Shown in pieces: positions 16,252 through 53,648 of a stretch of DNA of 64,000 bases; position 1 is the first letter of the stretch; the number at the start of each line of letters is the position of its first letter. Source of the stretch: Candidatus Undinarchaeota archaeon (lineage in GTDB: Archaea > SpSt-1190 > JASMDC01); contig CAZFHY010000004.1 in the NCBI GenBank assembly GCA_964519305.1, positions 122,774 to 186,773 of the forward strand, read 5' to 3'. A model generated the notes under the pieces. It was not told where the DNA came from, did not search any database, and saw only the letters and a program-made list of their open reading frames with translations. The translations under genes and the position numbers were made by a program.

Positions 16252-17337
16252 TCAATGTCCCGGGAGAAAATCACGATAGTAGCAGGTTAGGTCAGTGCAC
16301 TCCCCACTGTACCCTTGACGGAAGGTGCGACGGGTGCGGGTGTAGAGCGCACTGTCGGGGATCGTGTCGTCCTTCGCGGCCTTGAGGATGTCGGTGATGA
16401 AGCGCACGTCCTGGAGCTTGCGGGCCATGTCGTTGGGCCGGCCGTCGATCTTGACCGCAGTGATCCCTGCCCTGAGGAGCGTTCGGAGGACACAAGCTCC
16501 GCAGTCCACACCGGTCTTACCACCGAAGTGGCCTCCCATCCGTTGTCTGGCCGCGGCCATCCCCTCCAATGGGACGCTACCGATCGTCACTGGTGATACA
16601 TTGTAGTCGAGCAGGCATGGTGCAGGCCGGAGGCCGGGAAGACGGCGCACATGCCGCAGCGCACGCTTGGGGACGAATTTGGCCGCCTGCAGCGCCCATC
16701 GACTGTTGAGGAGGCCGAACCCGATGCGCCCCGTGAGCGGCCGGACCGCTTCGTCCATGCCGTCCACGAAGGTGCAGAACCCGTCGACGTTCACGCACCG
16801 GTTGTTTAGCACGAACACCTCCAGCTCCACGGGCGAGTCGCGTGCCAGTGCCACGATCTCCTCGGGAGTGAGCTGCTGTGGCAGCACCACACGGCTGGCG
16901 CCCAGGCCCTCGTAGAACTCCAGAGCAGCACTGTTGAAGGCGGGAGCGATGGTGCTCACATGGAGACGCACGTCCGGATGCTCGGTCCGTGCACGGACCA
17001 TGGTGGGCACGTCGGCGATTAGGAATCCGTCCACGCCCGCGTCAGCAGCAGCGTCCATCAACCGGCCCAGATGCTCGCGCTGGCGGTGGGTGTAGTAGTC
17101 GAGGTTGAGGGTAAGGGTCACCGGCGCCTTTCGTTCGTGAGCGCGGTCCACGGCATCCTTGAGCTCTTCTAACGAAGGGAAGTTCGCACCAACAGCGGGC
17201 TCCTGGTTGCCGGCCACGAGGGTGGAGAAGGCCTTGCGCCAGTCGGCGGTCAGCACTCCTGCATAGAAGGCGGTGGCTCCGGCATCCACCAGGGGATCCA
17301 CCTCGAAGGCACGAGTGAGCGGGGAGAGGACCTCCAC
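16252..17337 (-). CDS. U32 family Fe-S protein (paralog 1)
   Basis: LSP..GA..FYAG, DGFLIAD, HVST, FNS, GASRVVLP, EVFV, CVNVDGFC, CGAC and KIDGR. The GTG start is set by alignment with the paralogs. Confidence 0.9.
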   Translation of the reverse strand: MEVLSPLTRAFEVDPLVDAGATAFYAGVLTADWRKAFSTLVAGNQEPAVGANFPSLEELKDAVDRAHERKAPVTLTLNLDYYTHRQREHLGRLMDAAADAGVDGFLIADVPTMVRARTEHPDVRLHVSTIAPAFNSAALEFYEGLGASRVVLPQQLTPEEIVALARDSPVELEVFVLNNRCVNVDGFCTFVDGMDEAVRPLTGRIGFGLLNSRWALQAAKFVPKRALRHVRRLPGLRPAPCLLDYNVSPVTIGSVPLEGMAAARQRMGGHFGGKTGVDCGACVLRTLLRAGITAVKIDGRPNDMARKLQDVRFITDILKAAKDDTIPDSALYTRTRRTFRQGYSGECTDLTCYYRDFLPGH

Positions 17338-17358
17338 GTCTGGAAGGGCGACGCCAAC

Positions 17359-17368
17359 CTTGATAAAG
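17359..17368. promoter_or_regulatory. Bidirectional TATA-like element between U32 and queD
   Basis: CTTGATAAAG (reverse complement of CTTTATCAAG) lies exactly 21 nt from both divergent starts (17337 and 17390). Confidence 0.75.
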
Positions 17369-17389
17369 GTACGCGGGGAGAACGGGAGC

Positions 17390-17824
17390 ATGCTGATCAC
17401 CGTCTCCGGCCTCGGGTTCGCGGCCTCCCACTTCCTGGCAGGCCATCCCACGTGCGGGCGCCTCCACGGCCATAACTACCGCGTCGAGATCGTGTGCGAG
17501 GGCGAACCTGACGACAGGGGCATGGTGGCCGACTTCCACGTGATCAAAGCGGCCGCTGCTACCGTGCTCGATGAGGTGGACCACCGGACCCTTCTTCCCG
17601 GGGAGAACGACGAGATCAAGATATCGGTCGAGGGTGACGAGGTCAGGGTCACGGGCTGCAAGACACTAGTGCTCCCACGCGAGGACGTAGTGGTGCTGCC
17701 TGTGAGGAACACGACCTGCGAGGAGCTGGTTAAATGGCTCCACGGCAGAATGGCAGAACACATCCCCTCCCTTGTGAACGTCAGGCTGTGGGAGAACGAG
17801 CGCTCGTCAGCGGCATATCCCTAG
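17390..17824 (+). CDS. queD: 6-carboxy-5,6,7,8-tetrahydropterin synthase / 6-pyruvoyl-H4-pterin synthase
   Basis: FAASH, CGRLHGHNY, GMVADF, DH, TTCE and WE motifs. Confidence 0.88.
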   Translation: MLITVSGLGFAASHFLAGHPTCGRLHGHNYRVEIVCEGEPDDRGMVADFHVIKAAAATVLDEVDHRTLLPGENDEIKISVEGDEVRVTGCKTLVLPREDVVVLPVRNTTCEELVKWLHGRMAEHIPSLVNVRLWENERSSAAYP

Positions 17825-25194: not shown

Positions 25195-26712
25195 CTACAT
25201 GAACGCGTCCACGTCGCGTTCCGTTATCTCGACACCGTTCTCGTAGTCGCTGGCCGCGTCCTCCAGCCCGCGTGCGTGGGACGGCTCGCTGGACCGGCGG
25301 CGGCGCACCTTGATGAAGGCCGGGTAGTTGACCGCCGCGCCTACGACGAGAGCCTCGCCCACCCGCAGGCTAGAGATGGTGTTCAGGACCTCGCGAGATA
25401 TCCCCTCGCTGGATCGTCCGATGTGGTCGAGGTCGTATGGATTGGTGACCCTGAGGATTATATGGGTGTTGCACTGGGACAGGGCGGTGGTGGAGAGCTG
25501 GATGGGACGCTGGCTGATGAGGCAGAGACCAGCGTAGAACTTACGTCCCTCCCGAGCGATCTTCTGGATGATGGAGCGTGACAGCGCCTGCTCCCGTGCT
25601 TCGCCCCCGGGCACGTAGTTGTGTGCTTCCTCGACCACCTGCACGTACGGGCACACCTCGCCCCGCTGCCGGAGCTTGAAGATGGTCCGTGACACGTGAG
25701 TGACGATGATCTGCTTGGCCCGGAGGCTAGTGAGGGGGGACATGTCGATGATGACGGCCTTCCCCGGTTTGACCAATCGCTTGAGGCTGGGCCGGTCCTT
25801 CTTGGCGAAGAGCTTGGTGGCATGCAGGTCATTGAGCCAGCCGACGAGGGCGGGCACGATGTTCTCATGGATGGACTCGTCGCTCCTCACTAGCTCGATC
25901 AGGTCGGTCAGGTCGTATTTGCCGCGCATCTCCTCCCGCGCCCGAGCGATGACCCGCGACAGTTCCCTCCGCTGGGCAGACGACATCCTGGGGAGGTATT
26001 CCGCGATTCCGAAGGCGGATAGCTTGGGCACGGCGATGCGGTAGTCGTCCCCTCCGACCACTGTGACCTTGCCAGCGCCCACGGGATCATCGGCCTGGCC
26101 AAGGGAGGTGTACTCCCCGTGGCCGTCGAGCACCACGAGCGCTACGCGGCCTTTGCCCTCGGGGCGCGACAGCAGTTCCTCCATGAGCACGGTCGTGAGG
26201 TAGGACTTTCCAGCGCCCGAGAGCGCGAGGATGGCCACATGCTTCTGGAAGAGACGGGTGAGGTTGAGCCGGGCGTCCAGGTCGTGATGGGCCACGCTCC
26301 CGATATGTATCCCGTCGGTCTCGATACCAAGGAATGTCCTCAGTGTATCGCTGTCGGCCAGGGCCACCTTGGTGCCCGGTGACGGGGGGAAGGAGGGACG
26401 CTGGACACCATCGCGGAGCACTCCCAGGGGGACGGCGTCGCCCACCAGGAACTCCCACCGGTCGGTGGGAAAGAGTGCGCCCAGTGTGGAGCCACCGCGC
26501 TCGTACTCCTTGACAGACTCGGCCCTTGCGAAATATCGGTTCGTCTTGCGCAGGTCCACGACCCGGGCGATAAGGGTGCCCTCCTCGCAGTCGACCTTGA
26601 CGAACTGGTCCTTGCGCACGGGCATGGGTTCGCCGCCCTCCCGCACGACGAACGAGAAACGAGTAGGGGACGGCCCCTCCAGCGAGGAGATCACGGTGCC
26701 GACCTCGTCCAT
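25195..26712 (-). CDS. herA: HerA-family ATPase/helicase
   Basis: N-terminal HAS-barrel-like region, HVAILALSGAGKS Walker A, DGHGEY, EEAHNY, IAREGRKF and SQRP. Confidence 0.9.
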   Translation of the reverse strand: MDEVGTVISSLEGPSPTRFSFVVREGGEPMPVRKDQFVKVDCEEGTLIARVVDLRKTNRYFARAESVKEYERGGSTLGALFPTDRWEFLVGDAVPLGVLRDGVQRPSFPPSPGTKVALADSDTLRTFLGIETDGIHIGSVAHHDLDARLNLTRLFQKHVAILALSGAGKSYLTTVLMEELLSRPEGKGRVALVVLDGHGEYTSLGQADDPVGAGKVTVVGGDDYRIAVPKLSAFGIAEYLPRMSSAQRRELSRVIARAREEMRGKYDLTDLIELVRSDESIHENIVPALVGWLNDLHATKLFAKKDRPSLKRLVKPGKAVIIDMSPLTSLRAKQIIVTHVSRTIFKLRQRGEVCPYVQVVEEAHNYVPGGEAREQALSRSIIQKIAREGRKFYAGLCLISQRPIQLSTTALSQCNTHIILRVTNPYDLDHIGRSSEGISREVLNTISSLRVGEALVVGAAVNYPAFIKVRRRRSSEPSHARGLEDAASDYENGVEITERDVDAFM

Positions 26713-26783
26713 CGATGGACTCCACCGCACCTTTAAATAAAAAGATTTACTCACAACTGTTCCAGTTAATACGGGGCCATACA

Positions 26784-27602
26784 ATGCCGACACTAGGACG
26801 ACGGGTCATCCGGAAGGTCATCAAGAAGCCCACACCGCCCGAGGGCCCAAGCCGCGAGATCGTAGACCGCATAGAGCGGGATAAAGCCCGCCTCCACAAC
26901 TGGATGGAGGGTAACATCGACCGCATCAAAGGGTGGAAGGGTGAGGAGCGCCGCATCCGGGAGCTCGAGCACCGCTTCGAGGAGGTCGAGGAAGAGGCAT
27001 CGGTCCCCATCACCGTCGACGAATCTCGGATACTCGAGCACGACATCGGGCTGCTAGAGGACCACATCACTGCCCTTGAGCGGTCCAGTGCTTTCAAGGA
27101 GCTGAAGGGCCAGCCCGCTCCGAAAGCAACAACTCAGGTCCGTACGACCGCGGCCGGGCCGGTGCCCCGTGTCCGTCCGGCATCGACAGCACCTATGCAG
27201 GGACCGAGAGGTCCACCCCGACCGGGACCCGGTGAGAGGAAGGCCACTGACGATGTGCTCGACCGCATCGACGGTGTGCTCGACAAGATGGAGTCGACCA
27301 TGGGCGTGTGGGCCAACGCTACCCGCATCTCACCCGAGAAGGTCATGCGCTCCAAACGGCGGTCCGGTGAGGGGCTACCACAGGACAATTACCAGCTCGT
27401 CGGCCGGTTCCTCGCCAACCTGGTGCAGAAGGGCACGCTCGGGCCCCCCAGCGCTATAACGCGCGAGCGCGTTCTCCGGGCCTTGCCCGGCATCTATGCA
27501 GGCGTCGCCAAGTACCTGAAGGTCACACCCGAGGAGGTCAGGCTCTCTCCACAGGAGGAAGAGAAGCTGGCCGCCGAGCTCGTTCGGGCCGTTTCCCAGT
27601 AG
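26784..27602 (+). CDS. Hypothetical protein (coiled coil, Pro-rich linker, helical C-terminus)
   Basis: The ORF fills the gap, divergent from herA, and has typical codon use. Confidence 0.6.
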   Translation: MPTLGRRVIRKVIKKPTPPEGPSREIVDRIERDKARLHNWMEGNIDRIKGWKGEERRIRELEHRFEEVEEEASVPITVDESRILEHDIGLLEDHITALERSSAFKELKGQPAPKATTQVRTTAAGPVPRVRPASTAPMQGPRGPPRPGPGERKATDDVLDRIDGVLDKMESTMGVWANATRISPEKVMRSKRRSGEGLPQDNYQLVGRFLANLVQKGTLGPPSAITRERVLRALPGIYAGVAKYLKVTPEEVRLSPQEEEKLAAELVRAVSQ

Positions 27603-29948: not shown

Positions 29949-30140
29949 CGCGGGTCTCCAGTAGACACTATGTGCCCTGAGAGTTAAAAAGATGTTGGAC
30001 GCCGCGCGGGGGTGAATACAGCAGGAGGCATGACTGATGGAAAAGCATGCGAGGATGCGGCACGGCAGCACGCACCTACATCCACGGCCCCCTCGGGGAA
30101 CATATTAAAATCTACTCTCCGTGCATCCAATGGGACGTCC

Positions 30141-41145: not shown

Positions 41146-41152
41146 GGGAGCC

Positions 41153-42016
41153 GTGGTGACGCGGTACTCTCTGGGTCTCGGGTGGCGCTGCAACAACCAA
41201 TGCACGTTCTGCTGCGCCGGTACGAACGTGTACGATGAGCTCCCCCCTGATCAGGTCCGCTGCCTGCTCAAGATAGCGGCAGACGATGGAGCGGACGAGC
41301 TCGTGCTGACCGGGGGAGAGCCCACCTGTCGCGACGACCTCTTCGATATAGTGCGCGAGGCACGAAAGCTCGGGTATACGACCGTGCAGCTCCAGACCAA
41401 CGGTCGCATGCTCTATTACCCCGACTATACAGCCCAGCTCATAGACGCTGGCATCACCGAGTTCATCGTCACCGTTTCTGGCCACACGGCACAGCTCCAT
41501 GAGGGACAGACGAAGGTCCGCGGCTCACATCACCAGACCATGGCCGCGATCCGGAACATCAGACGGTTGGGTGGGTTCGTCGCTGCCAATGTCGTCGCTA
41601 CGAAGGCAGTGGCCCCCCATCTCCCTGCTATCGCCCGGGATCTGGTGAAGCGGGACGTTTCGCAAGTGCAAGTGGCATTCCCGGAACCGGCGGGCAGGGC
41701 GTACCTCGCCATGGACGAGGTCGTGCCCCGGCTCCGCGATATCCGGGCCCCACTTCGCGAGGCCCTGGCCGTGGTGCTGGAGGCGGAGCGGTTCGCCACG
41801 ATCGAGGGTTTCCCCCTCTGTACATCGCCTATCCACCTCCGCAATACCGTTGAGTGGATGGAGGGTGAGGGCGGTGCGGTCCCTGTCTGGGAACGTCGGG
41901 TCCACGGCGCGGCCTGTGATCAGTGCACTATTGCAGAGCGCTGCCCCGGCATGTGGTCTACGTACATGGACCGCTGGGGCGATGATGAGCTCGAACCGGT
42001 GACCTCTGTCATTTGA
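41153..42016 (+). CDS. Radical SAM protein (CNNxCxFC type, C-terminal CxxCx5C)
   Basis: CNNQCTFC, GGEPT, QLQTNGRM, FPLC and CDQCTIAERCPG. Confidence 0.9.
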   Translation: MVTRYSLGLGWRCNNQCTFCCAGTNVYDELPPDQVRCLLKIAADDGADELVLTGGEPTCRDDLFDIVREARKLGYTTVQLQTNGRMLYYPDYTAQLIDAGITEFIVTVSGHTAQLHEGQTKVRGSHHQTMAAIRNIRRLGGFVAANVVATKAVAPHLPAIARDLVKRDVSQVQVAFPEPAGRAYLAMDEVVPRLRDIRAPLREALAVVLEAERFATIEGFPLCTSPIHLRNTVEWMEGEGGAVPVWERRVHGAACDQCTIAERCPGMWSTYMDRWGDDELEPVTSVI

Positions 42017-42947
42017 GGTGGGCCTGAGCGAGGTCGGCCGTCGAATCCACAGGGCTCCCGGGGACAGGTACGAACTCGTCCCATCCGAACCGATCAGGAT
42101 ACTCGCGCCACACACCCTCACAGACACTTACGAACCGGCACTGTGAGCACCGAGGTCCCTTGGCCTTTCCCTCTGCAACGCGGGTCGTGTCGAAATCCGT
42201 GTCGAGCCCCTCAGGGCTGTCAACCTCAGTGGGGGGCAGGTAGAGCTCCGAGGCCAGGGATTCCCTTCCATGCAAGAGACATAGGGGCACGGCCTCCACA
42301 TGCGCGTCCAGCCCACGGGACCCGGCGAGGTCCAGGGCGGCGGTGATAGGTGGTACTGCGTCCTTCATCCGGGGGACCACCTGATCGAACTCATCCCGGG
42401 CGTTGCCCTCGGCATGTACGAAAGCGGCCTGGTAGCCACGCGCGCCACTGTCAGCGGCGATCCGTGCGATGTCCACGAGCTCCCCGAGATTGGACCGTAC
42501 GACCACGGTCTTGATGACAACCTGCACCCCTGCTGCGACGAGGTTGTCAATGCCTCCCCGGGTCTGGTCGAAGGCACCCGGTGCTCGCACCAGCCCATCG
42601 TGCGTGGACGGCGTTGCGCCATGAAGCGCGACCACCGCTTCAGTGAGCCCGGCCTGGGCCAGGTCGACCGCCAGACCCCGATAGCTCGCCATCCGCCCGT
42701 TGGTCTGGAGCTGGATACGACCGTAACCAAGTCTGTGGGCTGCTGACACCAGCTCCACGAGGTCCGATCGTACCGACGGTTCCCCGCCCGTGATGACAAC
42801 CTCGGTGGCCTCGGGTCGTGCGCGCTCCAGCGCAGCGACTAGCATATCGGTACCCCGGTCGGGATTGGCGCGCCGGCGGGCAACGACACAGAAGCGGCAG
42901 TTATTATTGCAGGAATAGCCCACCTTGAGGTCCAGGCGTCGGACCAT
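42009..42947 (-). CDS. Radical SAM protein, paralog of 41153..42016
   Basis: CNNNCRFC, GGEPS, QLQTNGRM, VPLC and CSQCRFVSVCEG. Confidence 0.9.
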   Translation of the reverse strand: MVRRLDLKVGYSCNNNCRFCVVARRRANPDRGTDMLVAALERARPEATEVVITGGEPSVRSDLVELVSAAHRLGYGRIQLQTNGRMASYRGLAVDLAQAGLTEAVVALHGATPSTHDGLVRAPGAFDQTRGGIDNLVAAGVQVVIKTVVVRSNLGELVDIARIAADSGARGYQAAFVHAEGNARDEFDQVVPRMKDAVPPITAALDLAGSRGLDAHVEAVPLCLLHGRESLASELYLPPTEVDSPEGLDTDFDTTRVAEGKAKGPRCSQCRFVSVCEGVWREYPDRFGWDEFVPVPGSPVDSTADLAQAHLK

Positions 42948-42998
42948 GATGGCGTTGTGAGGCGCAAAGGATTTATCTTCTCCCACGGAAGGGTCGGT

Positions 42999-43979
42999 GT
43001 GAGGCTCTGGAACAAGCTCGCGGCCGCCCGGGCGGTAGCGCTTGCGCACCTGACAGGGCGACGTACACCGCTGTCCGTGTCCTTCCACGTTACGAACAGG
43101 TGTAATTACGCCTGCTCCTACTGCGACGTTCCGGGAACACCGACCGACGAGATGACCCTCGATGAGGTGTACGACATCATCGACGGGCTCGCCAGGCTGG
43201 GATGTCAGCGCATCGGCCTCACAGGCGGCGAGCCACTGGTCCGCGACGATATCGGGGACATCGTCAGACGATGCCAGGACAACGGTATATTCACGGGACT
43301 TGTGTCCAACGGCGCGCTGGTGACACGCAGGCTCAAGGACATCACCTCGCTCGACCTGCTCCAGCTCTCACTCGACGGACCTGCGAAAGTGCACGACGCC
43401 GTCAGGGAGCCTGGAGCACACGACAGGGCTGTAGAGGCCATCGCCGCAGCAAGAGCCGAGGACATGACCGTCTGGCTCACCACCGTGCTCACAAACGATA
43501 GTGTCGAGCACGTTGACCATGTGCTCGACATCGCTCGTCACTACGACCTTCAGGTGTACTTCCAGCCTGTCGTGGACTATGATATTTGCGGACCGGGTGC
43601 GAAGAAGCTCCTACCCGACGCAGAGCGCTTGCGCGAGGTCCTAACATACCTCATGATGGTAAAGCGCTCAGAGGGGCTGATCGGTAACTCGATCGAGGGT
43701 CTTGAGCACCTTATGCACTGGCCCGAGCACCCCCGGGACGTGCATTGCTGGGCAGGGTCCCTCTACGCACATATCTACACCGACGGTCGGTTGTACCCCT
43801 GCTTCAACATGGTCGGAGGCCCTGCACCCGACGCTCGGGCAGCAGGTATCGAGAGAGCGTTCTCTGAGCTTGAACCGCCATCGTGCGCGGGGTGCTGGAC
43901 CTACGCCAATCTAGAGCTCAACCTTCTATTCTCGCTGGACCCGGGCGTGGTGATGAACACACTCAGGCTCCTTAGATGA
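42999..43979 (+). CDS. Radical SAM protein with twitch/SPASM-like domain
   Basis: CNYACSYC, GGEPL, LSLDG, CWAG...DGRLYPC and CAGC. Confidence 0.9.
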   Translation: MRLWNKLAAARAVALAHLTGRRTPLSVSFHVTNRCNYACSYCDVPGTPTDEMTLDEVYDIIDGLARLGCQRIGLTGGEPLVRDDIGDIVRRCQDNGIFTGLVSNGALVTRRLKDITSLDLLQLSLDGPAKVHDAVREPGAHDRAVEAIAAARAEDMTVWLTTVLTNDSVEHVDHVLDIARHYDLQVYFQPVVDYDICGPGAKKLLPDAERLREVLTYLMMVKRSEGLIGNSIEGLEHLMHWPEHPRDVHCWAGSLYAHIYTDGRLYPCFNMVGGPAPDARAAGIERAFSELEPPSCAGCWTYANLELNLLFSLDPGVVMNTLRLLR

Positions 43980-44649
43980 CGGATTCCACGTGAGCACAGA
44001 GGTCCGCCAATGGACACTCGCTGCACCGTGGTGACCGGGGCCGGCACACGTCCTTACCAAGGGCCACGAAGAGGGCGTGGTACTCGTTGTAGAGGTGGAC
44101 GTCCTCGGGCATATGGGTGATGAACAAGTATTGGAGCTCATCATACTTCACATCCGCCGTGCAGAGACCCAACCGCGAGCAGATCCGGCGTGTGTAGGCA
44201 TCGATGACGAACGACGGCATCCCTGCTGCGTACAAGAGGATGGAATCGGCTGTCTCGGGGCCCACACCCGTGACGTCGAGCAGGTCCTCACGCAGTCGGG
44301 AGAGAGGGCGGGAGAAGAGGATGTCCAGCCCACCTGCATTATCGATGAACGCCACCAGACCTTTGAGGCGCCGGGCCTTCTGGTTGAAGTATCCGGCAGG
44401 CCGTATCAGGGCCGCCAGCTTGGTCTCGGGAAGCTCGCGAATACCATCGGGGGAGAGAGCACCGGCCTGCGACAAGGCAGCGATGGCCCGTTCCACGTTC
44501 GTCCAGGCGGTATTCTGTGTGAGCAGCGCTCCGACGACTATCTCGAAGGGTGTGTCCCCCGGCCACCAGTGCTGAGGGCCGAACCGCGCGAACAGTCGCT
44601 CGTAGACCTCTGACACCAGGTGCGTTGGGTCCGTGTCGGGTCCCGTCAC
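43972..44649 (-). CDS. Endonuclease III-related HhH-GPD glycosylase
   Basis: WWP..TPFE, LTQNT.W, GVGPETAD and C-terminal Cx6CxxCx5C. Confidence 0.9.
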   Translation of the reverse strand: MTGPDTDPTHLVSEVYERLFARFGPQHWWPGDTPFEIVVGALLTQNTAWTNVERAIAALSQAGALSPDGIRELPETKLAALIRPAGYFNQKARRLKGLVAFIDNAGGLDILFSRPLSRLREDLLDVTGVGPETADSILLYAAGMPSFVIDAYTRRICSRLGLCTADVKYDELQYLFITHMPEDVHLYNEYHALFVALGKDVCRPRSPRCSECPLADLCAHVESVI

Positions 44650-44670
44650 GGCCCCCGCGGCACCGAGAAA

Positions 44671-44680
44671 CTTTATCAAG
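44671..44680. promoter_or_regulatory. Bidirectional TATA-like element between the endonuclease III gene and U32
   Basis: CTTTATCAAG lies exactly 21 nt from both divergent GTG starts (44649 and 44702). Confidence 0.75.
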
Positions 44681-44701
44681 GTTGGTGTCACCCTTCCCGG
44701 C

Positions 44702-45784
44702 GTGGAGCTGCTCTCCCCGCTAACTCGCGTCCACGAGGTTGATCCGCTCATCGACGCCGGAGCAACCGAGCTCTTCGCCGGTGTGCTCACGCCTGAGTGG
44801 AAAGAGGCGTTCTCCACCCTGGTCGCCAGTAACCGTCGTGACACTTCAGTGGGCAACTTCCCCTCGCTCGAGGAACTCGAGGAGGCCGTGGGCCGGGCCC
44901 ACGAACGGAACGTGCCCGTCAACCTTACTCTTAACCTCTCCTTCTACACAGCGCGCCAGCACGAGCGTGTCGGCAGGCTCATGGACGCCGCTGCAGGACT
45001 GGGTATCGATGGATTCCTCATAGCCGATCTCCCAACCATGCTCCGGGCCCGCGATGAGTACCCGGATATCGCCCTGCACATAAGCACCATCGCTCCCAGC
45101 TTCAACCGCTCGACCCTGCAGTTCTATGCCGAGCTCGGGGCCGAGCGAGCAGTGCTCCCCCGTCACGTTAGTCTTGACGAGGTGACCGGTCTCGTAAAAG
45201 ATACCCCACTCGATCTCGAGGTGTTCGTGCTCAACAATCCATGCCTGAACGTCGATGGGTTCTGCACATTCACTCATGGTGTCCATGAGGCCACAGTATC
45301 CCTTGTGGGCAGTCTTGGGCGCGCTCTTCGTCACAGCCACTGGGCCATAGCCCTGGCACGGCATGCGCCCACCGATCTGCTCAGGCTGGCCCGCAAGCTG
45401 CCTGGCCTCACACCACCACCATGCATGCTTCCCTACGATATCGACGTAGTGGCCGTTGGGGGATTGGCTTTGGACGGGGTGGCCGCGTCCCGGGCACGCG
45501 TCTCGGCCAACCTCAGACCGAAGACCGGTGTCGACTGCGGTGCCTGCTCACTGCGCACCCTTCTGAACGCTGGTGTGAAGGCGATCAAGATCGACGGAAG
45601 GACCAACGACACGCCGCGTAAGATAAAGGACGTGCGCTACCTTGCGGCACTGCTCGAGCTCGCGGGCGACAACAGCATCACCGATACCGAGCTCTACCAG
45701 CGCACTCGTGAGAGGTTCCAGGAGGAGTACAGCGGAGTATGCGCGGACCGCTCCTGCTACTACCGGGAGTTCGTTCCCAGATAA
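44702..45784 (+). CDS. U32 family Fe-S protein (paralog 2)
   Basis: LSPL, GATELFAG, DGFLIAD, HIST, CLNVDGFC, CGAC, KIDGR and CADRSCYY. Confidence 0.9.
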   Translation: MELLSPLTRVHEVDPLIDAGATELFAGVLTPEWKEAFSTLVASNRRDTSVGNFPSLEELEEAVGRAHERNVPVNLTLNLSFYTARQHERVGRLMDAAAGLGIDGFLIADLPTMLRARDEYPDIALHISTIAPSFNRSTLQFYAELGAERAVLPRHVSLDEVTGLVKDTPLDLEVFVLNNPCLNVDGFCTFTHGVHEATVSLVGSLGRALRHSHWAIALARHAPTDLLRLARKLPGLTPPPCMLPYDIDVVAVGGLALDGVAASRARVSANLRPKTGVDCGACSLRTLLNAGVKAIKIDGRTNDTPRKIKDVRYLAALLELAGDNSITDTELYQRTRERFQEEYSGVCADRSCYYREFVPR

Positions 45785-45787
45785 GGG

Positions 45788-46888
45788 ATGGTCATCATGG
45801 ATATCCTCTCGCCCCTCACACGCGCCGAAGAAGTGAACCCGCTGGTGGACGCTGGCGCCACCGAGTTCTATGCAGGCGTGCTAACCCCCGAATGGAGACG
45901 TGCGTACACGACCCTCGTATCAGGCAACCAGCAGCATACCACTTGGGGCAACTTTCTATCTCTGGAGGACCTATCCGACGCTGTCGAGAGGGCCCATGAA
46001 CGAAAGACGACCGTCAACCTTACCGTCAACACCGCCTACTACACGACAGCCCAGCACGAGCTGGTAGGTAAGGTCCTGGACGCCGGTGCCGACATGGGCG
46101 TCGACGGGTTCATCATCGCCGATGTACCCACAATGCTACGCGCCCGCCAGGAACATCCGGACGTCACCGTCCACGTGAGCACCCTCGCCCCCTGTTTCAA
46201 CCGCTCGACGCTTGCGTTCTTCGCGGACCTGGGCGCCTCCCGCATAGTGCTCCCCCAACAACTCACTCCTGACGAGATCGCGACACTAGCCCAAGATGCT
46301 CCACTTGACATCGAGGTATTCGTGCTCAACAACCGATGCCTGAACGTTGACGGATTCTGCACCTTTACCCATGGCGTAGAGGAGGCCACCCGTGCCCATG
46401 ACACAGGTCTCGGCCACGCCCTCCTACACAGCAGGTGGGCGATGACGGCCGCCCGGACCCTCCCAAGAGCCGTGCTCCAGCGAATACGGCGGTTCTCCAT
46501 GTTCCGTCCCCCTCCATGCATGATCGAATATACCACCGAACCGCTCTCCGTGAGAGGGGCGCCGCTCGAGGGACTGGCCGCTGCCCGAGAGCGGATGTCA
46601 TCCCATTTCAAAGGGAAGACTGGGATTGACTGCGGCGCCTGTGTCCTCCGCACACTTATGCGTGCTGGTGTGAGAGCGGTGAAGATCGACGGTAGGACCA
46701 ACGACCTGACGCGCAAGCTCATGGACGTCCGGTTCCTTGCGAACCTGCTAGAGGCAGCCAAAGACGACACTATCACGGACGAGGTACTGTACGCGCGTAC
46801 ACGTAGCGCCTTCCGCGAGCAGTACGCAGGATCCTGCACGGACATATCATGCTACTACCGGGAATTCCTGCCAAAGTCATCCCGATGA
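45788..46888 (+). CDS. U32 family Fe-S protein (paralog 3)
   Basis: Same motif set: CLNVDGFC, CGAC, KIDGR and CTDISCYY. Confidence 0.9.
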   Translation: MVIMDILSPLTRAEEVNPLVDAGATEFYAGVLTPEWRRAYTTLVSGNQQHTTWGNFLSLEDLSDAVERAHERKTTVNLTVNTAYYTTAQHELVGKVLDAGADMGVDGFIIADVPTMLRARQEHPDVTVHVSTLAPCFNRSTLAFFADLGASRIVLPQQLTPDEIATLAQDAPLDIEVFVLNNRCLNVDGFCTFTHGVEEATRAHDTGLGHALLHSRWAMTAARTLPRAVLQRIRRFSMFRPPPCMIEYTTEPLSVRGAPLEGLAAARERMSSHFKGKTGIDCGACVLRTLMRAGVRAVKIDGRTNDLTRKLMDVRFLANLLEAAKDDTITDEVLYARTRSAFREQYAGSCTDISCYYREFLPKSSR

Positions 46889-46967: not shown

Positions 46968-48710
46968 CTAATCGGCCTTACCGACAAGCTCGATCCTGGA
47001 TAGCTGGAGGTCGGTGAACAGGGCCGACATCTCCCCCCCGGGCGCGGTAACACGCTGAATCGGGACGATCTTGAAAGAACTGTCCAGTGCGGGTGTGAGA
47101 ATGTTCCTGTCCCTGTCCGATCCGTATAGGTACACGCATGAACCCTTATCGAGCAGTGCTCTCACGTCCTTGCGAATCGTGGCCGCCATCAGTTCACGTG
47201 GGAATCGCTTCGGCTCGGTATCGACGACGATGACACGCCGACGCCACATGTGTTGGGGACGTATGGATTCTACGGCCAATATATAGCATTCAGGACCAAC
47301 GAGAGTTCGCCAGCCGTCGATGATACGCGCCTCCCATGCGAGTGTCTCACGTATAGGACGGTGCACACCATCGTTGGTCGTGATGGTCTTATAGAGGCAG
47401 GGAACGAGCACTATACATGATATGGTTACGACGACAAGGAGTCGTCGTCCCCCTTCTCCCACCCGCCACAAGGCCCAGAGCAGGACCGTTAGGGGAAGAA
47501 CGAGGTGGAGGACGCCGAGCGACCGGCCCATCGCTTCCGGGAGCTCGAATCCGTACCATGTGTCATAGGCGAACGGTAGGTGAAAAGCGCCGGACAGGAT
47601 GATAGCACCGATGAGGACATGGCTCCTAGGGGCCAGCGCTCTCGCACCTGCACCACAGGCCATGGCGAACGGGGCAGAGAGAAGGAGCATGTAGCGGGGG
47701 ATAAAGGTCTCGGACGTCTGGAGAAGGTACACGAAGAGTCGCACCACCCACCAAGAGGCCGCGAGCGTCCCGTACGGCGAGGGGAGACGCCACATGACCA
47801 CACACCCCATCATGGCGAGTGCGGTGAACAGGAACGGTTGGTGGAACCCGTCGAACCAGTAGAACACGTAGGAGACGTTACCTACCACCTGGCTAAGGTC
47901 CAAACGCTGTGAGATGCCCTGGTATCCGAAGTGGAGCTCGCTCCACGACATATAGGTGGGCGCGATCAGTACGAGTGCCACGATCCAGGGGGTTAGCGAT
48001 GGGCGTGGGTAGTCGGACCACCGTCGGTATACGACAATGAGAGGGACAATGATCAGTACGCTCTCTACTCTCATCGTCAAGAGGAATGCGGTGCAGGCAG
48101 CGGAGAGCCACCCAAGCGCTGCCCTGCGTGTTCTCACATGGACAATGGCCGCGAGCACGGCAAGGGTCTCAAGGAGAATGGAAGACACTTCGGAGCGGGT
48201 GGTGACCGCGTATCTCACGTGCATTGGGAGAAGGGCAATGACCAGAGCGGCCACGAGAGCTACACGACGGTCCCGGCCGACCAGCGTCACAAGAAGGTAG
48301 ACGCATCCCACGGTGAGCACTCCTCCGACCACACCCACCACTCGTGCCGCCAAGTCGGAGAAGCCGAACAGGGTGGATGTCAGGGAAAGGATGAGGGGGT
48401 AGCCGATTGGAAAGAACGTATCGAACCTCTGACAGTCGCCACTCATGCCCAATGTACAGAACGCGTTGATGTGATGTTGGGCGAGGACCGTGGATTGTTC
48501 GTGGTAGAACAACTCATCGTCGATGAGGATAGGACGATAGGGATTGAGAACGCGCACGCTGAAAGCGATGAGTAGGACGAGGAACAGTGCGCTTCGCCCA
48601 TTTCGGGAACGCGGGACGAACGCCCACAGCTCCCTACGCGAGGCCACGAGCGCCCCGGTGATGAGCAGGAGGTTCGCGATCCCCACGGGCAGTGCCAGGG
48701 ACACCGGCAT
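46968..48710 (-). CDS. GT-C fold glycosyltransferase (ArnT/PMT_2, family 39/83-like)
   Basis: Acidic DDE motif in the first loop, PIGYP, AAR, PMHVRYA..SE, R.E and PRY motifs; many TM helices. Confidence 0.85.
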   Translation of the reverse strand: MPVSLALPVGIANLLLITGALVASRRELWAFVPRSRNGRSALFLVLLIAFSVRVLNPYRPILIDDELFYHEQSTVLAQHHINAFCTLGMSGDCQRFDTFFPIGYPLILSLTSTLFGFSDLAARVVGVVGGVLTVGCVYLLVTLVGRDRRVALVAALVIALLPMHVRYAVTTRSEVSSILLETLAVLAAIVHVRTRRAALGWLSAACTAFLLTMRVESVLIIVPLIVVYRRWSDYPRPSLTPWIVALVLIAPTYMSWSELHFGYQGISQRLDLSQVVGNVSYVFYWFDGFHQPFLFTALAMMGCVVMWRLPSPYGTLAASWWVVRLFVYLLQTSETFIPRYMLLLSAPFAMACGAGARALAPRSHVLIGAIILSGAFHLPFAYDTWYGFELPEAMGRSLGVLHLVLPLTVLLWALWRVGEGGRRLLVVVTISCIVLVPCLYKTITTNDGVHRPIRETLAWEARIIDGWRTLVGPECYILAVESIRPQHMWRRRVIVVDTEPKRFPRELMAATIRKDVRALLDKGSCVYLYGSDRDRNILTPALDSSFKIVPIQRVTAPGGEMSALFTDLQLSRIELVGKAD

Positions 48711-48777
48711 GGGATGACGAGGTACTCGATCCTTTATAAATAGAGGCAGGTCCGCGTCAGTGTATCCTGCCTACTCC

Positions 48778-50535
48778 CTACTGGGACTGGCGCCTACCCC
48801 TCACACGGTAGAAGGCGATCTCCTCGAGGAGCTGTATTGCATCAGGGGACTCATTATTTACATCGATCAGGTCCAACAGTTCTAGCACATAGTTCTCGTG
48901 AAGGACGGACGCGGTCCACCCGCGTGGCCTCGGTTCGTAGAAGAATACACATTCTCCATCACGTAGTAACGGATCCAGTTCCACCGCCAACATCTCACTT
49001 ACCGTCTCCGTGGAGAAGAAGTTGAAGTTGGCAACGACCGTAGGCCGCTGCCACAAGTATCGCGGACGCACGGGCTCTACGACGACGACGTGACAGTCTT
49101 GGCCGACCAGATAGCGCCATCCATCGATCGTGCGCTCCTCCAGTGCGAACGCCTCACGATGGGCATGATGCACGCCATCAGTTGTCTCTATCAGGGTGTA
49201 TAGGAGCGGGACAAGGAACAGACAGGCTACCGCTATTACTACATGGGGTCGCGGCTCCCGCGACCGCCACGCCGCCCAGAGCAGCAGTGCAAGTGGGAGG
49301 AATAAGTGGACAGCTGCCATCGTCGAACTGATGCCCTCGGCTAGTTCGATCCCATATCGAACACTGTAGGCAAAGGGCAGGTGCGCTATACCGGACAGCA
49401 CTACGGCAATAACTATGAAAGAGACTACGGGCGAGAATATGTTTGCACCGGCGCCGGCGAGCAGTGCGAACGGAACGGAGAGGCTGAGCATGAAACGAGG
49501 ATTGAACTCCCGGAAGTGGTTGAGGAGGTACACGCCCATCCGGACCAGCAACCAGGAGGCAGCGAGTCGAGCGTACGGTACGGGAAGCCCTCGAACGGCC
49601 ACGGCACCCATAAGGGCGAGGCCTGTGAAGAGGAACGGGACGAAGTACCCATCCAGCCAGTACCTGACGTACCATAGATTGCGTGGTATGTGCTTGGGAT
49701 GAAGGGGGACCTCCCGGTCCTCGGCCTGCGTGGAGCTCAGATGGAAGGTAGAGCCCATGTTGAGTTCGTTGAACCCGCTCATGTGAGGTGTGAGCAGTAC
49801 GAAGGCCACTATCCAGGGGAGGGCGGACCTTCGTGCTCTTCCCCCGCTACTATAGACGGCCAGGACCGGGACAATCGCCAGCGGGTTCTCCCGTCGCACG
49901 GTCACATGGAACGCGAGGGAGGCGGCTGCGAGCCAGGCATTAGCCGGGCGCCCCGTCCTTACATGGAGGAGCGCTCCTAGGACCGCCAAGGCCTCTGTCA
50001 GCAAGGAGACCATCTCGGAGGACGTCGCCATGGCGTACCTCACATGCATGGGAAGGAGGGCAATTACGAGCGATGCCACGAGCGCGGTCCGCTCGTTCCG
50101 GACGAGGAGACGTGCCAGCAAGTATGTGACCAGCACGGTCGCGATACCGCACATGATCCCCACTGCACGTGCTGCGACATCGGTGAACCCGAAGATCGAG
50201 GACGCTAGCGAGAGGACCACAGGATAACCGATCGGATAGAACACGCCGAACCGTCCGCAGTCGTCCATGTCACCGTATGTGCAGAACACGTTGAGACGAT
50301 GATGGACAAGCGCATGGGACTGGTCGATGTAGAGCCACTCGTCCTCGAATGGCATCGGACGGTAGGGATTGAGAACTCGTACGCTGAACGCGATGAGGAG
50401 CACGAGCAACAGCGCTCTGCGCTCACGAGGGGCCCGCGGGATTAGCTTCCAGAACTCCCGACGCGATGCCACCAGCGCCCCGGCGATGAGCAGGAGGTTC
50501 GCCAGCGCCATGGGGAGCGCCAGGGGCGACGGCAT
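48778..50535 (-). CDS. GT-C fold glycosyltransferase (tandem paralog)
   Basis: EDE, YPIGYP, PMHVRYA..SE, RRE and PRF motifs; colinear with the neighbour. Confidence 0.85.
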   Translation of the reverse strand: MPSPLALPMALANLLLIAGALVASRREFWKLIPRAPRERRALLLVLLIAFSVRVLNPYRPMPFEDEWLYIDQSHALVHHRLNVFCTYGDMDDCGRFGVFYPIGYPVVLSLASSIFGFTDVAARAVGIMCGIATVLVTYLLARLLVRNERTALVASLVIALLPMHVRYAMATSSEMVSLLTEALAVLGALLHVRTGRPANAWLAAASLAFHVTVRRENPLAIVPVLAVYSSGGRARRSALPWIVAFVLLTPHMSGFNELNMGSTFHLSSTQAEDREVPLHPKHIPRNLWYVRYWLDGYFVPFLFTGLALMGAVAVRGLPVPYARLAASWLLVRMGVYLLNHFREFNPRFMLSLSVPFALLAGAGANIFSPVVSFIVIAVVLSGIAHLPFAYSVRYGIELAEGISSTMAAVHLFLPLALLLWAAWRSREPRPHVVIAVACLFLVPLLYTLIETTDGVHHAHREAFALEERTIDGWRYLVGQDCHVVVVEPVRPRYLWQRPTVVANFNFFSTETVSEMLAVELDPLLRDGECVFFYEPRPRGWTASVLHENYVLELLDLIDVNNESPDAIQLLEEIAFYRVRGRRQSQ

Positions 50536-50585: not shown

Positions 50586-51380
50586 TCATACAGGCAGGCC
50601 CGGCGCATGGACCACACGGTCGATGCCTCGCGCTTCCAGGTCGTCGGGGAGATGGTCGTTGCGGTAGAACTGGGTATTCCCCGCGAGCACAAGCGGTACG
50701 GGCATGTGTCTCGTGATGAGGCGGAAGGGGCCGTAACGCAGGCACTCCTTCCCGCATGGGGTAAGGCTCGGCCGCGCACCGCTATTACCACATAAGGCGA
50801 CAGGACAGCATCGGCTCGTAGTGACGTATGCATAAGGGTAGTGCAGAGAGCCTTTCAGACCTGATCCCGTCAGGTCGTCATCGATGCCCTGGAGGAGGTT
50901 ATCCAGTTCCACACGAAGCACACCTTGCTCGCGCAGGAACGCCTGGAAAGCGGGCGCACTGACATTGGAACGACGGTAATGATGAAAGGCTGCCGGTGGG
51001 ATACGTTCCTCAAGAAGGGTGACCCGGGGGCCGCGTTTCTGCTTAGTAAGCAGACGTCCGAGCACGGGTCGCAGGTCCCATCCATTCTCTCGAATGAGCG
51101 TTAGGATACCAAGATCGTTCACGACTACCTCGGACCCGGGCGCCCTGTCGTGCAGTCGCCCAATCAGTTCTGTCGTCCGCTCGAGCGCCGTGTCGGTAAC
51201 AAACGGAGTGACAAGTGTAAGGTCCGCGTCCCGGTCCCGGGCGAATCCTATCGCGGTATCTAGCCCGGCAATGTCAGGGAGGATACGCTGGCAGAACTCC
51301 TGTCCGAAATGGAGCCTAGTGTACCGGTCCTCCCACCGGTCCAAGTCACTTACCTTTGTCACGTAGAGGGCGTTCTCCAT
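50586..51380 (-). CDS. Divergent short U32-like protein
   Basis: RLHFGQEFC, LVTP, EVVVNDLG, LGRLL, RVELDN and TTSRCC..C..PCGKEC; starts 1 nt after the stop of a U32 gene. Confidence 0.6.
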   Translation of the reverse strand: MENALYVTKVSDLDRWEDRYTRLHFGQEFCQRILPDIAGLDTAIGFARDRDADLTLVTPFVTDTALERTTELIGRLHDRAPGSEVVVNDLGILTLIRENGWDLRPVLGRLLTKQKRGPRVTLLEERIPPAAFHHYRRSNVSAPAFQAFLREQGVLRVELDNLLQGIDDDLTGSGLKGSLHYPYAYVTTSRCCPVALCGNSGARPSLTPCGKECLRYGPFRLITRHMPVPLVLAGNTQFYRNDHLPDDLEARGIDRVVHAPGLPV

Positions 51381-51381
51381 G

Positions 51382-52467
51382 TCAGCCCACCAGATTGTTG
51401 CAGTAGTCGTCGTCACAGGCGAAGCCTCGGAGGGCACCGAACCTCTCCCGGGCACGGTCGCAGAACGCGTTGTCGTCGGTCGTGCGTTCCATCTCTTTCA
51501 GCATCGTCTTGATGAAGGTTATGTTGTTGAGCCGGTCGCCGAGCGGGGCTGCCCGGTCCTCGGTCTTGACCACTGAAATGCCCATACGGGCAAGTTGCGG
51601 GAGCGCGCATGCGCCACACCCGTACATCCGCTCGTGCTCATATGCGTTCGATAGCATAGGTGACAGGCAGGACCTGACGCGAGCGAGTTCGCCCTCCTCC
51701 ATCGCCTCCATCGGCTCGATGTCGTACCTCAGACAGCAAGCAGCGCGGTCCGCAAGGAACGTGTGCTCCTGGAGGAAACGCCGAAGCCGCCCTGCGCCCT
51801 TGCGCTGGTACGTCCTTATGATACCGCTCTGGAGCGGGTTGTTGAGGACGAACCTAGAGAGCTGCGGGTGCCGTGCCTCGATGACGCCATGTTGGAACCG
51901 ACAGAGTGCTTCCACGTTGTTGCAGCCCACTGTGAGGATGAAACTCTCCAGTACCATGTCACCGCGGTCTGCGGCGATGGAGTCGATCTCCTCCAGCGTG
52001 AGCTGCTTGGGCAGAACCACCCGCGAAGCACCGAGCTCCCGATAGAAGGCCACGGTACGTGAGTTGAACGCGCCACCGACAACGCTGACGTGGAGCTCCA
52101 CGCCCGTGTCCATGGCGACAAGTGTGCGCATGAGCCCGATGTCAGCGGCTATTATCCCGTCCACACCGGCGGACACCGCGCGCTCCACCTCCTTCTCTAG
52201 GAGATTGTATTGGTCGCGGCTGTAGTAGTACGAGTTGTAGGTAGCAAAGACCTTGGCGTCGTGTGAGTGGGCCACTTCCACCACATGTCGCAGCTCGTCG
52301 AAGTCGGTCAGATTGTGGAAGCGCGAGGGACTGCCGTTGATGGTCCCAGTATGAGCGAAGCTCCTCTGCCATGCAGGAGTGAGCACACCGCAGTACACCT
52401 CGTCCGCGCCAGCAGAGACAACCTTCTCGATCTCGCTGACGTTGTTGACCGGAGAGAGGACCTTCAT
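51382..52467 (-). CDS. U32 family Fe-S protein (paralog 4, more divergent)
   Basis: MKVLSP, GADEVYCG, DGIIAAD, HVS, FNS, GASRVVLP, CNNVEALC and CGAC. An alternative GTG start lies at 52476. Confidence 0.9.
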   Translation of the reverse strand: MKVLSPVNNVSEIEKVVSAGADEVYCGVLTPAWQRSFAHTGTINGSPSRFHNLTDFDELRHVVEVAHSHDAKVFATYNSYYYSRDQYNLLEKEVERAVSAGVDGIIAADIGLMRTLVAMDTGVELHVSVVGGAFNSRTVAFYRELGASRVVLPKQLTLEEIDSIAADRGDMVLESFILTVGCNNVEALCRFQHGVIEARHPQLSRFVLNNPLQSGIIRTYQRKGAGRLRRFLQEHTFLADRAACCLRYDIEPMEAMEEGELARVRSCLSPMLSNAYEHERMYGCGACALPQLARMGISVVKTEDRAAPLGDRLNNITFIKTMLKEMERTTDDNAFCDRARERFGALRGFACDDDYCNNLVG

Positions 52468-52531
52468 CCCGTCCACTCATGAGTGGGTGAGCTTTTTAAC
52501 GTTGTCCGCGAGGGCGTGGCCACTGCGACAC

Positions 52532-52541
52532 CTTTATCAAG
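52532..52541 (+). promoter_or_regulatory. TATA-like element upstream of U32 paralog 5
   Basis: CTTTATCAAG exactly 21 nt before GTG 52563. Confidence 0.7.
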
Positions 52542-52562
52542 CTTGGGCGACCCCCCTGCCCC

Positions 52563-53648
52563 GTGGAGCTCATCTCGCCCCTTACTGCGGTCCGGGAGGT
52601 TGCGCCTCTAGTCGAAGCTGGTGCCACTGAGCTCTACGCGGGTGTTCTGACACGAGGGTGGAAGGACTCCTTTTCGACGTTCGTGTCGAACAACGACCGT
52701 GACAGCGTCGTCGGTAACTTCTCGGACATTGAAGAGCTGCGCGAGGCGGTCGACATGGCCCATGAGCTGAAGGTACCCGTCCACCTCACACTCAATCCCG
52801 CCTACTACACGGCAGCACAGGCCGACCAACTGGCACGGCTCATGGACGATGCGGTCGATGCCGGAATCGACGGTTTCCTCATCTCGGACCTCCCGACCAT
52901 GCTCCGTGCTCGTCGCGAACATCCTGACCTATCGGTCCACGTAAGCACTATCTCCCCTGCGTTCAACAGCGCAGCGCTCGCGTTCTACGCGGGCCTGGGC
53001 GCCGAACGAGCGATCCTCCCCCAGCACCTCACTCCTGACGAGATCGCCGACCTTGCCCGTGATCCGCCACTGGACCTGGAGGTGTTCGTGCTCAACGACC
53101 GCTGCATGAACGTGGATGGTTTCTGCACCTTCATGGACGGACTCCAGGAGGCAGAGGATCCACGCAGCGGAGGCCTGGGACGCTCCGTCCTCCACAGTCG
53201 TGCGGCACTGATGGCCGCCCGTCACGTGCCCCGTCGCTTGCTCCGCATGGCCCGGCGACTTCCCGGGCTCAGGCCCGAACCCTGTCTGCTCGATTACGGG
53301 ACCGAGCCGGTGACCATCGGCCCCGTTCCGCTGGAGGGGATCGCAGCCGCCCGGTCACGGATGGAGCGGCATTTCCATGCCAAGACGGGTATCGACTGCG
53401 GTGCCTGCGTACTTCGCACGCTCATGAACGCTGGTGTGAAGGCCGTCAAGATCGCGGGACGCTCGAACGACACCCGTCGCAAGCTCCAAGACGTGCGTTT
53501 CATAGCTGCTCTGCTACGTCTTGCTGAGGATAACAATGTCAGTGATGAAGAGCTCTATGTGCAGACGCGAAAGGCGTTCCGTGACGACTACAGCGGCTCG
53601 TGTCGCGACGAGGTCTGCTACTACCGCACCTTCCTGCCTCGTGCGTGA
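52563..53648 (+). CDS. U32 family Fe-S protein (paralog 5)
   Basis: ISPL, GATELYAG, CMNVDGFC, CGAC, KIAGR and CRDEVCYY. Confidence 0.9.
   Translation: MELISPLTAVREVAPLVEAGATELYAGVLTRGWKDSFSTFVSNNDRDSVVGNFSDIEELREAVDMAHELKVPVHLTLNPAYYTAAQADQLARLMDDAVDAGIDGFLISDLPTMLRARREHPDLSVHVSTISPAFNSAALAFYAGLGAERAILPQHLTPDEIADLARDPPLDLEVFVLNDRCMNVDGFCTFMDGLQEAEDPRSGGLGRSVLHSRAALMAARHVPRRLLRMARRLPGLRPEPCLLDYGTEPVTIGPVPLEGIAAARSRMERHFHAKTGIDCGACVLRTLMNAGVKAVKIAGRSNDTRRKLQDVRFIAALLRLAEDNNVSDEELYVQTRKAFRDDYSGSCRDEVCYYRTFLPRA

Follow-up and report, generated by a model that had tools for sequence, protein, structure and literature searches.

Five U32-family large subunits with an enlarged cysteine set and an optional basic insert in a Candidatus Undinarchaeota archaeon

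We analysed five genes of the U32 family that lie in a 64,000-nucleotide stretch of a Candidatus Undinarchaeota genome (contig CAZFHY010000004.1, positions 122,774 to 186,773; hereafter the window, to which positions refer unless another contig is named). Numbered paralogs 1 to 5, they were found at 16252-17451 (minus strand; 399 amino acids as called, with a conserved N-terminal extension), 44633-45784 (plus strand; 383 amino acids), 45788-46888 (plus; 366 amino acids), 51382-52476 (minus; 364 amino acids) and 52563-53648 (plus; 361 amino acids), the stop codon of paralog 2 lying 3 nt ahead of the start of paralog 3. All five open reading frames (ORFs) exceeded the gathering score of the Pfam model Peptidase_U32 (PF01136; 22.4), with 84-102 bits and E-values of 9.5e-24 to 4.2e-29. 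Paralogs 1, 2, 3 and 5 were mutually 57-63 % identical in the alignment, and paralog 4 shared 31-35 % identity with these. A six-frame motif search located C.NVDGFC at 16774-16797 (minus strand) and at 45242-45265, 46337-46360 and 53103-53126 (plus strand), CNNVEALC once, at 51901-51924 (minus strand), and CGAC once in each of the five ORFs.

An earlier note on this DNA had recognised in these genes a subfamily with a peculiar cysteine arrangement, i.e. a Cx6C, an insert, a lone cysteine, CGAC and a C-terminal Cx4C, and every quoted motif was recovered at these places by the six-frame search. Seven cysteines are invariant among them: C219, C226, C279, C317, C320, C385 and C390 in paralog 1, corresponding in paralog 5 to C181/C188 (Cx6C), C241 (lone), C279/C282 (CGAC) and C347/C352 (Cx4C). 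The pattern is real, but it is not private to the window and marks a large clade. Across 178 aligned sequences from anaerobic bacteria and archaea, the seven cysteines were present in 171, 178, 177, 177, 176, 177 and 177 rows, respectively (96-100 %), with the C-terminal pair spaced Cx3-5C, and an eighth cysteine (position 26, within Y-C-G at the end of strand 2; hereafter Cys26) was present in 130 rows. When 77 large-subunit genes from outside the genus were considered within their loci, all seven cysteines were retained in 76, Cys26 in 75, and the two arginines R45 and R46 of an N-R-R loop in 76 each; since these rows had been picked by the Cx6C pattern, circularity affects the count for the Cx6C, but not the others. 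From these cysteine and arginine counts it follows that the family standard is eight cysteines together with an N-R-R loop.

A search with the clade profile retrieved 11,563 cluster representatives at E ≤1e-3 and 1,317 at E ≤1e-30, and the 150 cluster representatives among the matches listed were all end-to-end alignments with E <1e-76. Additionally, 158 homologues were confirmed in species-representative genomes, scanned with one peptide pattern derived from a 23-row alignment. Their hosts include Omnitrophota, Thermodesulfobacteriota ('delta proteobacteria'), Planctomycetes, Chloroflexota/Dehalococcoidia, Bathyarchaeia, Nanoarchaeota, Kiritimatiellia and Lentisphaerae. In the ESM Atlas, only U32 clusters with generic names were matched. 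We found no description of an eight-cysteine U32 clade in the literature searched, including that from 2023 on for peptidase U32, prephenate and hydroxylase; the clade may equal one of PepU32#1-6 among the 12 subfamilies of Kimura. The genome under study (3.63 Mb, 42 contigs) holds 11 copies, as does its one congener, where the orthologues of paralogs 1, 2, 3 and 5 are about 91 % identical, and none was found among 39 other relatives searched (mostly genomes of 0.6-2 Mb). Judging from these sequence comparisons, we regard the five window ORFs as large subunits belonging to a widely distributed U32 clade with an eight-cysteine standard and an 11-fold expansion in this genus. At 3.63 Mb (about 3.8 Mb in the congener), this genome is unusually large for Candidatus Undinarchaeales; further members of its class covered by the search measure 0.6-1.2 Mb.

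The term large subunit refers to a second gene, at 50586-51455 (minus strand; 289 amino acids as called), which overlaps the end of paralog 4 and encodes a UbiV-like small subunit with four invariant cysteines. The small-subunit family counts seven ORFs in the genome (about 266-339 amino acids), each adjoining a large gene (six downstream, one upstream), and its cysteines, one N-terminal and three C-terminal, follow CXnCX16CX3C. This recalls the CXnCX12CX3C of UbiV (PMC6747719), and the comparison with the large family by hhalign (Prob 94.5 %, E 7.9e-8, 105 columns) identifies the small subunit as a remote U32 barrel. It differs from UbiV in that no Pfam or NCBIfam model matches it and in that it accompanies paralog 4 alone within the window, the remaining paralogs (1, 2, 3 and 5) being orphans, i.e. 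large genes without an adjoining small one. Seven of the 11 large copies of the genome stand beside a small subunit. Among the 77 large genes elsewhere, 42 had an adjoining small gene, 23 had none despite sufficient room and 12 were cut by the end of the locus. A link between Cys26 and pairing outside the genus was considered and rejected, as Cys26 was present in 40 of the 42 paired, all 23 unpaired and all 12 cut cases. At one of the genome's pairs (C2:184429-188207; C numbers designate contigs of this genome, G000), a gene for chorismate synthase, which feeds prephenate formation, lies about 700 nt downstream, and aspartyl-tRNA synthetase and GT2 glycosyltransferase genes flank the group.

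The compact CX6C-x~15-Cx3C motif had been taken in the earlier note as the known arrangement of UbiU, RlhA and TrhP. According to Pelosi et al. 2019 (PMC6747719), it describes most U32 families (CX6CX15CX3/4C), but UbiU (CX6CX16CX38C; C169, C176, C193 and C232) and UbiV depart from it. None of the 11 clade copies of the genome carried the canonical CX6CX15CX3C in a regular-expression search. It is present (C171, C178, C194, C198) in a separate 707-amino acid double-U32 protein (C1:75910-78033), possibly the RNA-type U32 enzyme of the genome. UbiU gave the best NCBIfam match and aligned with the clade by hhalign (Prob 99.85 %, E 1.2e-30), with the barrel, the Cx6C (C181/C188 on UbiU C169/C176) and a VKIxGR strand in common; moreover, most clade members are paired with a small iron-sulphur (Fe-S) subunit of UbiV type. 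However, the window paralogs matched the UbiU model (NF047963) over their N-terminal part only, with 92.6-103.4 bits against an equivalog cut-off of 440, and UbiU has four conserved cysteines compared with seven or eight in the clade, CGAC and the C-terminal Cx3-5C being absent from it. In contrast to the UbiU-UbiV system, the host is an archaeon with no ubiquinone genes in context and four of the five window copies lack a small partner; no match to SCP2 (UbiT) or Ubi families was found among the 36 window proteins scanned, the rest of the genome not having been searched for them. TrhP (YegQ) and RlhA (YdcP) share the U32 domain with its Cx6C. The paralogs scored only 56.7-62.9 bits against the TrhP model (NF011996; cut-off 534) and showed no match to Peptidase_U32_C (PF16325), and none of the five matched the Pfam domain DUF3656, which in RlhA follows the U32 domain (PMC5727448). 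RlhA needs C169 and C176 together with the distant C-terminal C580 and C611 (Kimura et al. 2017, PMC5727448), so additional C-terminal cysteines have a precedent.

In order to place the cysteines on a fold, paralog 5 was modelled with AlphaFold2 from a 150-row alignment (predicted local distance difference test, pLDDT, 94.4; predicted template modelling score, pTM, 0.93). The modelled protein would be a (β/α)8 barrel resembling MK0906 (PDB 5D88), a U32 protein of 247 residues that consists of the barrel only and was the only solved relative found. 5D88_A was the top structural match with the model as query (VIA Z 17.5, root mean square deviation 3.4 Å, 218 of 247 residues, model range 1-304); Foldseek also returned it (E 1.4e-6), followed by other triosephosphate isomerase (TIM) barrels. 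By sequence profile, 5D88 was the only PDB entry matched (E 6.5e-6), and single-sequence searches of the PDB gave nothing relevant. Strands were modelled at residues 2-6, 23-26, 73-77, 104-107, 124-127, 149-151, 171-177 and 294-297. From these positions, strands 7 and 8 would be joined by an excursion of about 115 residues (~178-293) on the catalytic barrel face, and this excursion contains the Cx6C, the insert, C241 and CGAC, the Cx3-5C being located in the C-terminal tail. Profile, Foldseek and VIA searches returned no solved counterpart of the excursion or the tail, the excursion not having been searched on its own.

Eight conserved cysteines suffice for two four-cysteine sites, and in the orphans the absence of Cys26 would leave one of these with three; a second site for a metal or cluster in the large subunit, as supposed in the earlier note, is plausible on this basis. 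By homology to UbiU-UbiV, the clade members would belong to the Fe-S redox enzymes of O2-independent hydroxylase type, with one cluster on the face formed by the Cx6C and the lone cysteine, which is also the predicted dimer face (see below). The remaining cysteines would build a second four-cysteine site. Cys26 could supply a ligand in the large subunit, as the loop after strand 2 does in UbiV and the small subunit. Both hhalign and MAFFT placed C241 on UbiU C232, leaving UbiU C193 opposite the insert and CGAC opposite a cysteine-free stretch. Family members without the insert (short forms) are spaced CX6C-X16-C-X34-CXXC, which, compared with UbiU CX6CX16CX38C, would pair C241 with C193 and C279 with C232. 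If the first cysteine of CGAC is the fourth ligand, this spacing also fits an alternative in which each chain binds one [4Fe-4S] cluster, a CGAC ligand replacing UbiU C193/C232, and the Cx4C and Cys26 have a regulatory or a structural role, the latter as a zinc site or disulfide. The two distant C-terminal cysteines that RlhA requires besides its Cx6C are likewise in keeping with it. Four further cysteines are nevertheless conserved at 73-99 % (75-76 of the 77 genome-derived homologues), which exceeds the need of one extra ligand, and we regard the single-cluster arrangement as unlikely. The histidine two residues ahead of the glycine in 'CTFxHG' is near-invariant in the family and is replaced by aspartate in paralogs 1 and 5 (residue 192 of the latter).

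The four orphans of the window and six metagenomic relatives formed one clade in the FastTree phylogeny (support 100, stem 0.93), whereas paralog 4 and the other copies of the genome were spread over several other deep branches. Cys26 was found in none of the four orphans compared with six of the seven paired copies of the genome, including paralog 4, where it lies in YCGV. Paralogs 1, 2 and 5 have exactly seven cysteines and paralog 3 one extra (C136). The orphans also differ in the loop after strand 2, i.e. GNQEP (17197-17211), SNRRD (44828-44842), GNQQH (45923-45937) and SNNDR (52686-52700) in paralogs 1, 2, 3 and 5, respectively. The earlier note had placed this loop after 'STLV', which is exact in paralogs 1 and 2, but reads TTLV in paralog 3 and STFV in paralog 5 and is different in paralog 4, and had seen in the loop a possible determinant of specificity. 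Since the loop is the conserved N-R-R motif of the family (145 of 159 family rows have the N, 126 an R or K and 133 the final R), its variation looks instead like a loss of conserved arginines: the motif is complete only in paralog 2, the others reading NQE (paralog 1), NQQ (paralog 3), NGS (paralog 4) and NDR (paralog 5). Paralogs 1, 2, 3 and 5 are a lineage-specific clade that lacks both the small partner and Cys26, N-R-R having been partly lost in three of them.

Binding between paralogs 2 and 3 was predicted with ESMFold2, with an interaction prediction score from aligned errors (ipSAE) of 0.64 compared with 0.00 for the best of three controls; the runs agreed in at least 95 % of contacts, with a partner pLDDT of at least 81. 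In calibration, 116 of 157 solved complexes and 2 of 215 mismatched pairs attained the ipSAE mark; these counts are rough here as the alignments were custom-made. In paralog-5 numbering, the predicted interface is pseudo-symmetric and comprises residues 38, 40, 80-87, 110-115, 132-141, 183-190 (including the second cysteine, Cys2), 194-198, the third cysteine at 241 (Cys3, in chain 2 only) and 250-253. The arginine-rich helices of the insert were not named in it, residues left unnamed being uncertain, not excluded. The orphans would thus probably act as large-large dimers, and the tandem pair 2/3 as a heterodimer. On an alternative reading, some orphans (1, 3 and 5) would be non-catalytic and have taken over the role of the small subunit after duplication, paralog 2, with its N-R-R, being the catalytic chain. 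R46, aligned by hhalign on UbiU R35, is missing from paralogs 1 and 3 and R45 from paralog 5, the two neighbours separated by 3 nt are predicted to bind, and the genome has 11 large genes and only seven small ones, all of which would agree with such a division. Yet the seven cysteines and the barrel motifs are retained, the congener orthologues remain about 91 % identical, and paralogs 1 and 5 have no adjoining partner at all; we therefore hold a non-catalytic role to be rather doubtful.

Between Cys2 and Cys3, all five paralogs carry an insert of 52-54 residues, at 16618-16773 (minus strand; residues 227-278 of paralog 1, net charge +7), 45266-45421 (plus; residues 212-263 of paralog 2), 46361-46516 (plus; residues 192-243 of paralog 3), 51739-51900 (minus; residues 193-246 of paralog 4) and 53127-53282 (plus; residues 189-240 of paralog 5). 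The 30-residue basic string quoted in the earlier note was located at 16633-16722. The spacing between the two cysteines is bimodal over 177 rows (up to 24 residues in 75 rows, 25-38 in 17 and at least 39 in 85). Long forms share a common design, i.e. a helix, (R/K)(R/K)-L-P-(R/K) and a second helix, with the central proline present in 69 of 85. On the tree, long forms are intermixed with short ones, and well-supported branches force at least seven changes (FastTree, local supports only), and two paired copies of the genome are short forms; a link between the insert and the possession of a small partner was rejected, both forms being found paired. From sequence comparison, the insert is an optional module of the clade with a conserved central proline and positive charge, and it would be an ancestral helix-proline-helix module of the Fe-S sub-domain.

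That the insert is basic and amphipathic, as the earlier note had it, was borne out by both net-charge and hydrophobic-moment calculations; it further proposed a membrane-docking helix, and here the model of paralog 5 shows four helices of 5-11 residues (194-198, 200-210, 213-219 and 224-230; pLDDT 89-92) in place of a single long one. Because these helices are short, broken by proline and modelled at such pLDDT, the insert reads more like a packed sub-domain than a free membrane anchor. A membrane role could still take the form of an amphipathic helix lying in the plane of an anionic membrane surface, which would dock the enzyme there and give it access to lipid-embedded substrates. It would be in line with the charge distribution (+4 to +7 in the inserts of the four window orphans against -5 to -15 in the remainder of the protein; at least +3 in 58 of 68 long-form inserts outside the genus, which average +5), with the 18-residue hydrophobic moment, whose maximum over the whole protein falls in the insert in seven of the nine long-form copies of the genome, with neighbouring genes for membrane glycosyltransferases and for radical S-adenosylmethionine (SAM) proteins resembling tetraether synthase (Tes) and TrsS, and with the polyprenyl lipid on which UbiU-UbiV act (PMC6747719). 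Against it stand the four helices split by a conserved proline in a model of pTM 0.93, whose packing is inferred, and the mean hydrophobicity of the best insert windows, negative in seven of nine copies (-0.14 to -0.56; +0.02 and +0.23 in the others). The insert is, besides, missing from 75 of 177 family members, including the two paired short forms of the genome, and its scattered distribution on the tree argues in the same direction. We regard membrane docking as the weaker interpretation of the insert and give it a low probability. We favour a structured, positively charged lid or surface close to the active site, which would most likely be its role in place of a detachable anchor.

Such positive charge might also serve to dock an acidic or phosphorylated partner by the cluster, e.g. 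a ferredoxin-like carrier, the head group of a nucleotide sugar or polyprenyl phosphate, or RNA, as for TrhP and RlhA. The insert is flanked by two cluster-face cysteines at the predicted dimer interface, its arginine-rich helices remain unnamed there, and R/K positions are conserved around the L-P motif; UbiU-UbiV require an electron acceptor, described as being of unidentified nature in PMC10990095, and DegT, hexapeptide-transferase and glycosyltransferase genes lie nearby. However, no partner gene adjoins consistently, and the freedom of the helices is itself uncertain, as noted above for unnamed interface residues. For RNA in particular, no RNA-binding domain was found, the TrhP scores (57-63 bits against 534) are low and the genome has its separate canonical double-U32 protein. 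We consider a docking surface of this kind quite improbable, and rank an RNA-enzyme reading of the clade low.

Paralogs 2 and 3 are preceded by three radical SAM genes and followed by two genes for PMT_2-type membrane glycosyltransferases, which are paralogs of each other and lie between paralogs 3 and 4 (46968-50535, minus strand). Two of the radical SAM products are HxsC-like below cut-off (41105-42016, plus strand; 42009-43088, minus strand). The third (42957-43979, plus strand) best matches the PTO1314 family, also below cut-off, and is 33-38 % identical over at least 90 % of its length to the products of radical SAM genes beside bacterial clade members. Near paralog 1 are found a radical SAM protein with an N-terminal zinc ribbon (8351-10186, minus strand), a carbamoyltransferase, two LPG_synthase_TM proteins and a major facilitator superfamily transporter. 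The best NCBIfam matches of the zinc-ribbon protein are TrsS and Tes, below cut-off; it is 26-29 % identical to the products of genes directly upstream of large U32 genes, a gene of this kind holding that upstream position in 12 of the 77 cases. Recurrent neighbours elsewhere are B12-radical SAM proteins (15 loci), CCG-domain proteins (11), FAD_binding_4 (9) and DegT (8), and at the other loci of the genome DegT, hexapeptide transferase, B12-radical SAM, methyltransferase and asparagine synthase genes occur together with many PMT_2 paralogs. Taken together, the radical SAM, B12-radical SAM, DegT and glycosyltransferase neighbours suggest a lipid or glycan substrate, not RNA. Prephenate, the O donor of UbiU-UbiV (PMC10990095), could be made, as the genome encodes chorismate synthase and has two matches to the chorismate mutase family CM_2, a capacity that is necessary, not sufficient, for the prephenate-dependent hydroxylation proposed for U32 proteins. 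None of the papers listed in a literature search joining U32 with radical SAM, tetraether and lipid contained U32, and those listed for TrsS were selenoprotein surveys. Seven zinc-ribbon TrsS/Tes-like radical SAM proteins (all below cut-off) were counted on C16, C5 and C2 and at 8351-10186 of the window, one of them (C2:33307-34665) directly upstream of a large/small U32 pair, and no true Tes (above cut-off) was found in the genome. At least nine PMT_2 paralogs, 40-50 % mutually identical, are interleaved with U32 pairs (C1:271298-292818 and window 46968-50535).

Our overall reading, which we consider somewhat better supported than its opposite, is that the clade members would be two-site Fe-S U32 large subunits with a basic lid, the orphans being an offshoot that acts as large-large dimers. 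Several points weigh against it. The mapping of the third and fourth UbiU ligands is ambiguous, alignment and spacing disagreeing, and the predicted dimer score cannot separate a 2/3 heterodimer from homodimers, since close cousins pass as well. The orphan state is not unique to the genus, because 23 of the 77 large genes elsewhere are unpaired despite room. The gene contexts are heterogeneous (radical SAM, DegT, CCG, flavin adenine dinucleotide-dependent oxidase, electron transfer flavoprotein) and name no substrate, and no biochemical data on any clade member were found in the literature searched. The more distinctive facts are the eight-cysteine standard, the small subunit hidden from family models, the 11-fold expansion and the degenerate orphan clade with its predicted large-large dimer. 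The seven-cysteine orphans are natural variants that could help to match ligands to sites.

To our knowledge, no enzymes other than U32 proteins are known to use prephenate for hydroxylation in the absence of O2, and a function has yet to be assigned to most U32 subfamilies. The clade described here has double the usual number of conserved cysteines and recurs beside radical SAM genes, which makes it a defined target for new anaerobic oxidation chemistry. As a bolder and improbable proposal, the clade might be a two-metal-site U32 oxidoreductase that, together with Tes/TrsS-like and B12 radical SAM proteins, hydroxylates or otherwise oxidises membrane lipids or lipid-linked glycans of anaerobes without O2. 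In this genus, the place of the UbiV-like partner would then be taken by a duplicated large subunit. The resulting large-large heterodimers would have one site-differentiated cluster, held by three cysteines, and a basic lid in contact with the membrane or the substrate head group.

Finally, some further features of the genome were recorded. Two giant cysteine-rich ORFs (5255 amino acids with 348 cysteines, C2:14170-29937; 2196 amino acids with 139 cysteines, C1:68765-75355) were noticed, and the window has a 692-amino acid cysteine-rich ORF at 36882-38960 with no Pfam match. Adjoining paralogous ORFs of 280 and 247 amino acids (6081-6923 and 7018-7761) matched no Pfam or NCBIfam model, and genes for a HerA-like ATPase (25195-26793) and a NurA nuclease (28830-30071) are close together. 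The window also encodes a class III ribonucleotide reductase (798-2993) and, at 32921-35067, has ORFs resembling pyruvate:ferredoxin oxidoreductase (not family-scanned), which fit an anaerobic archaeon.

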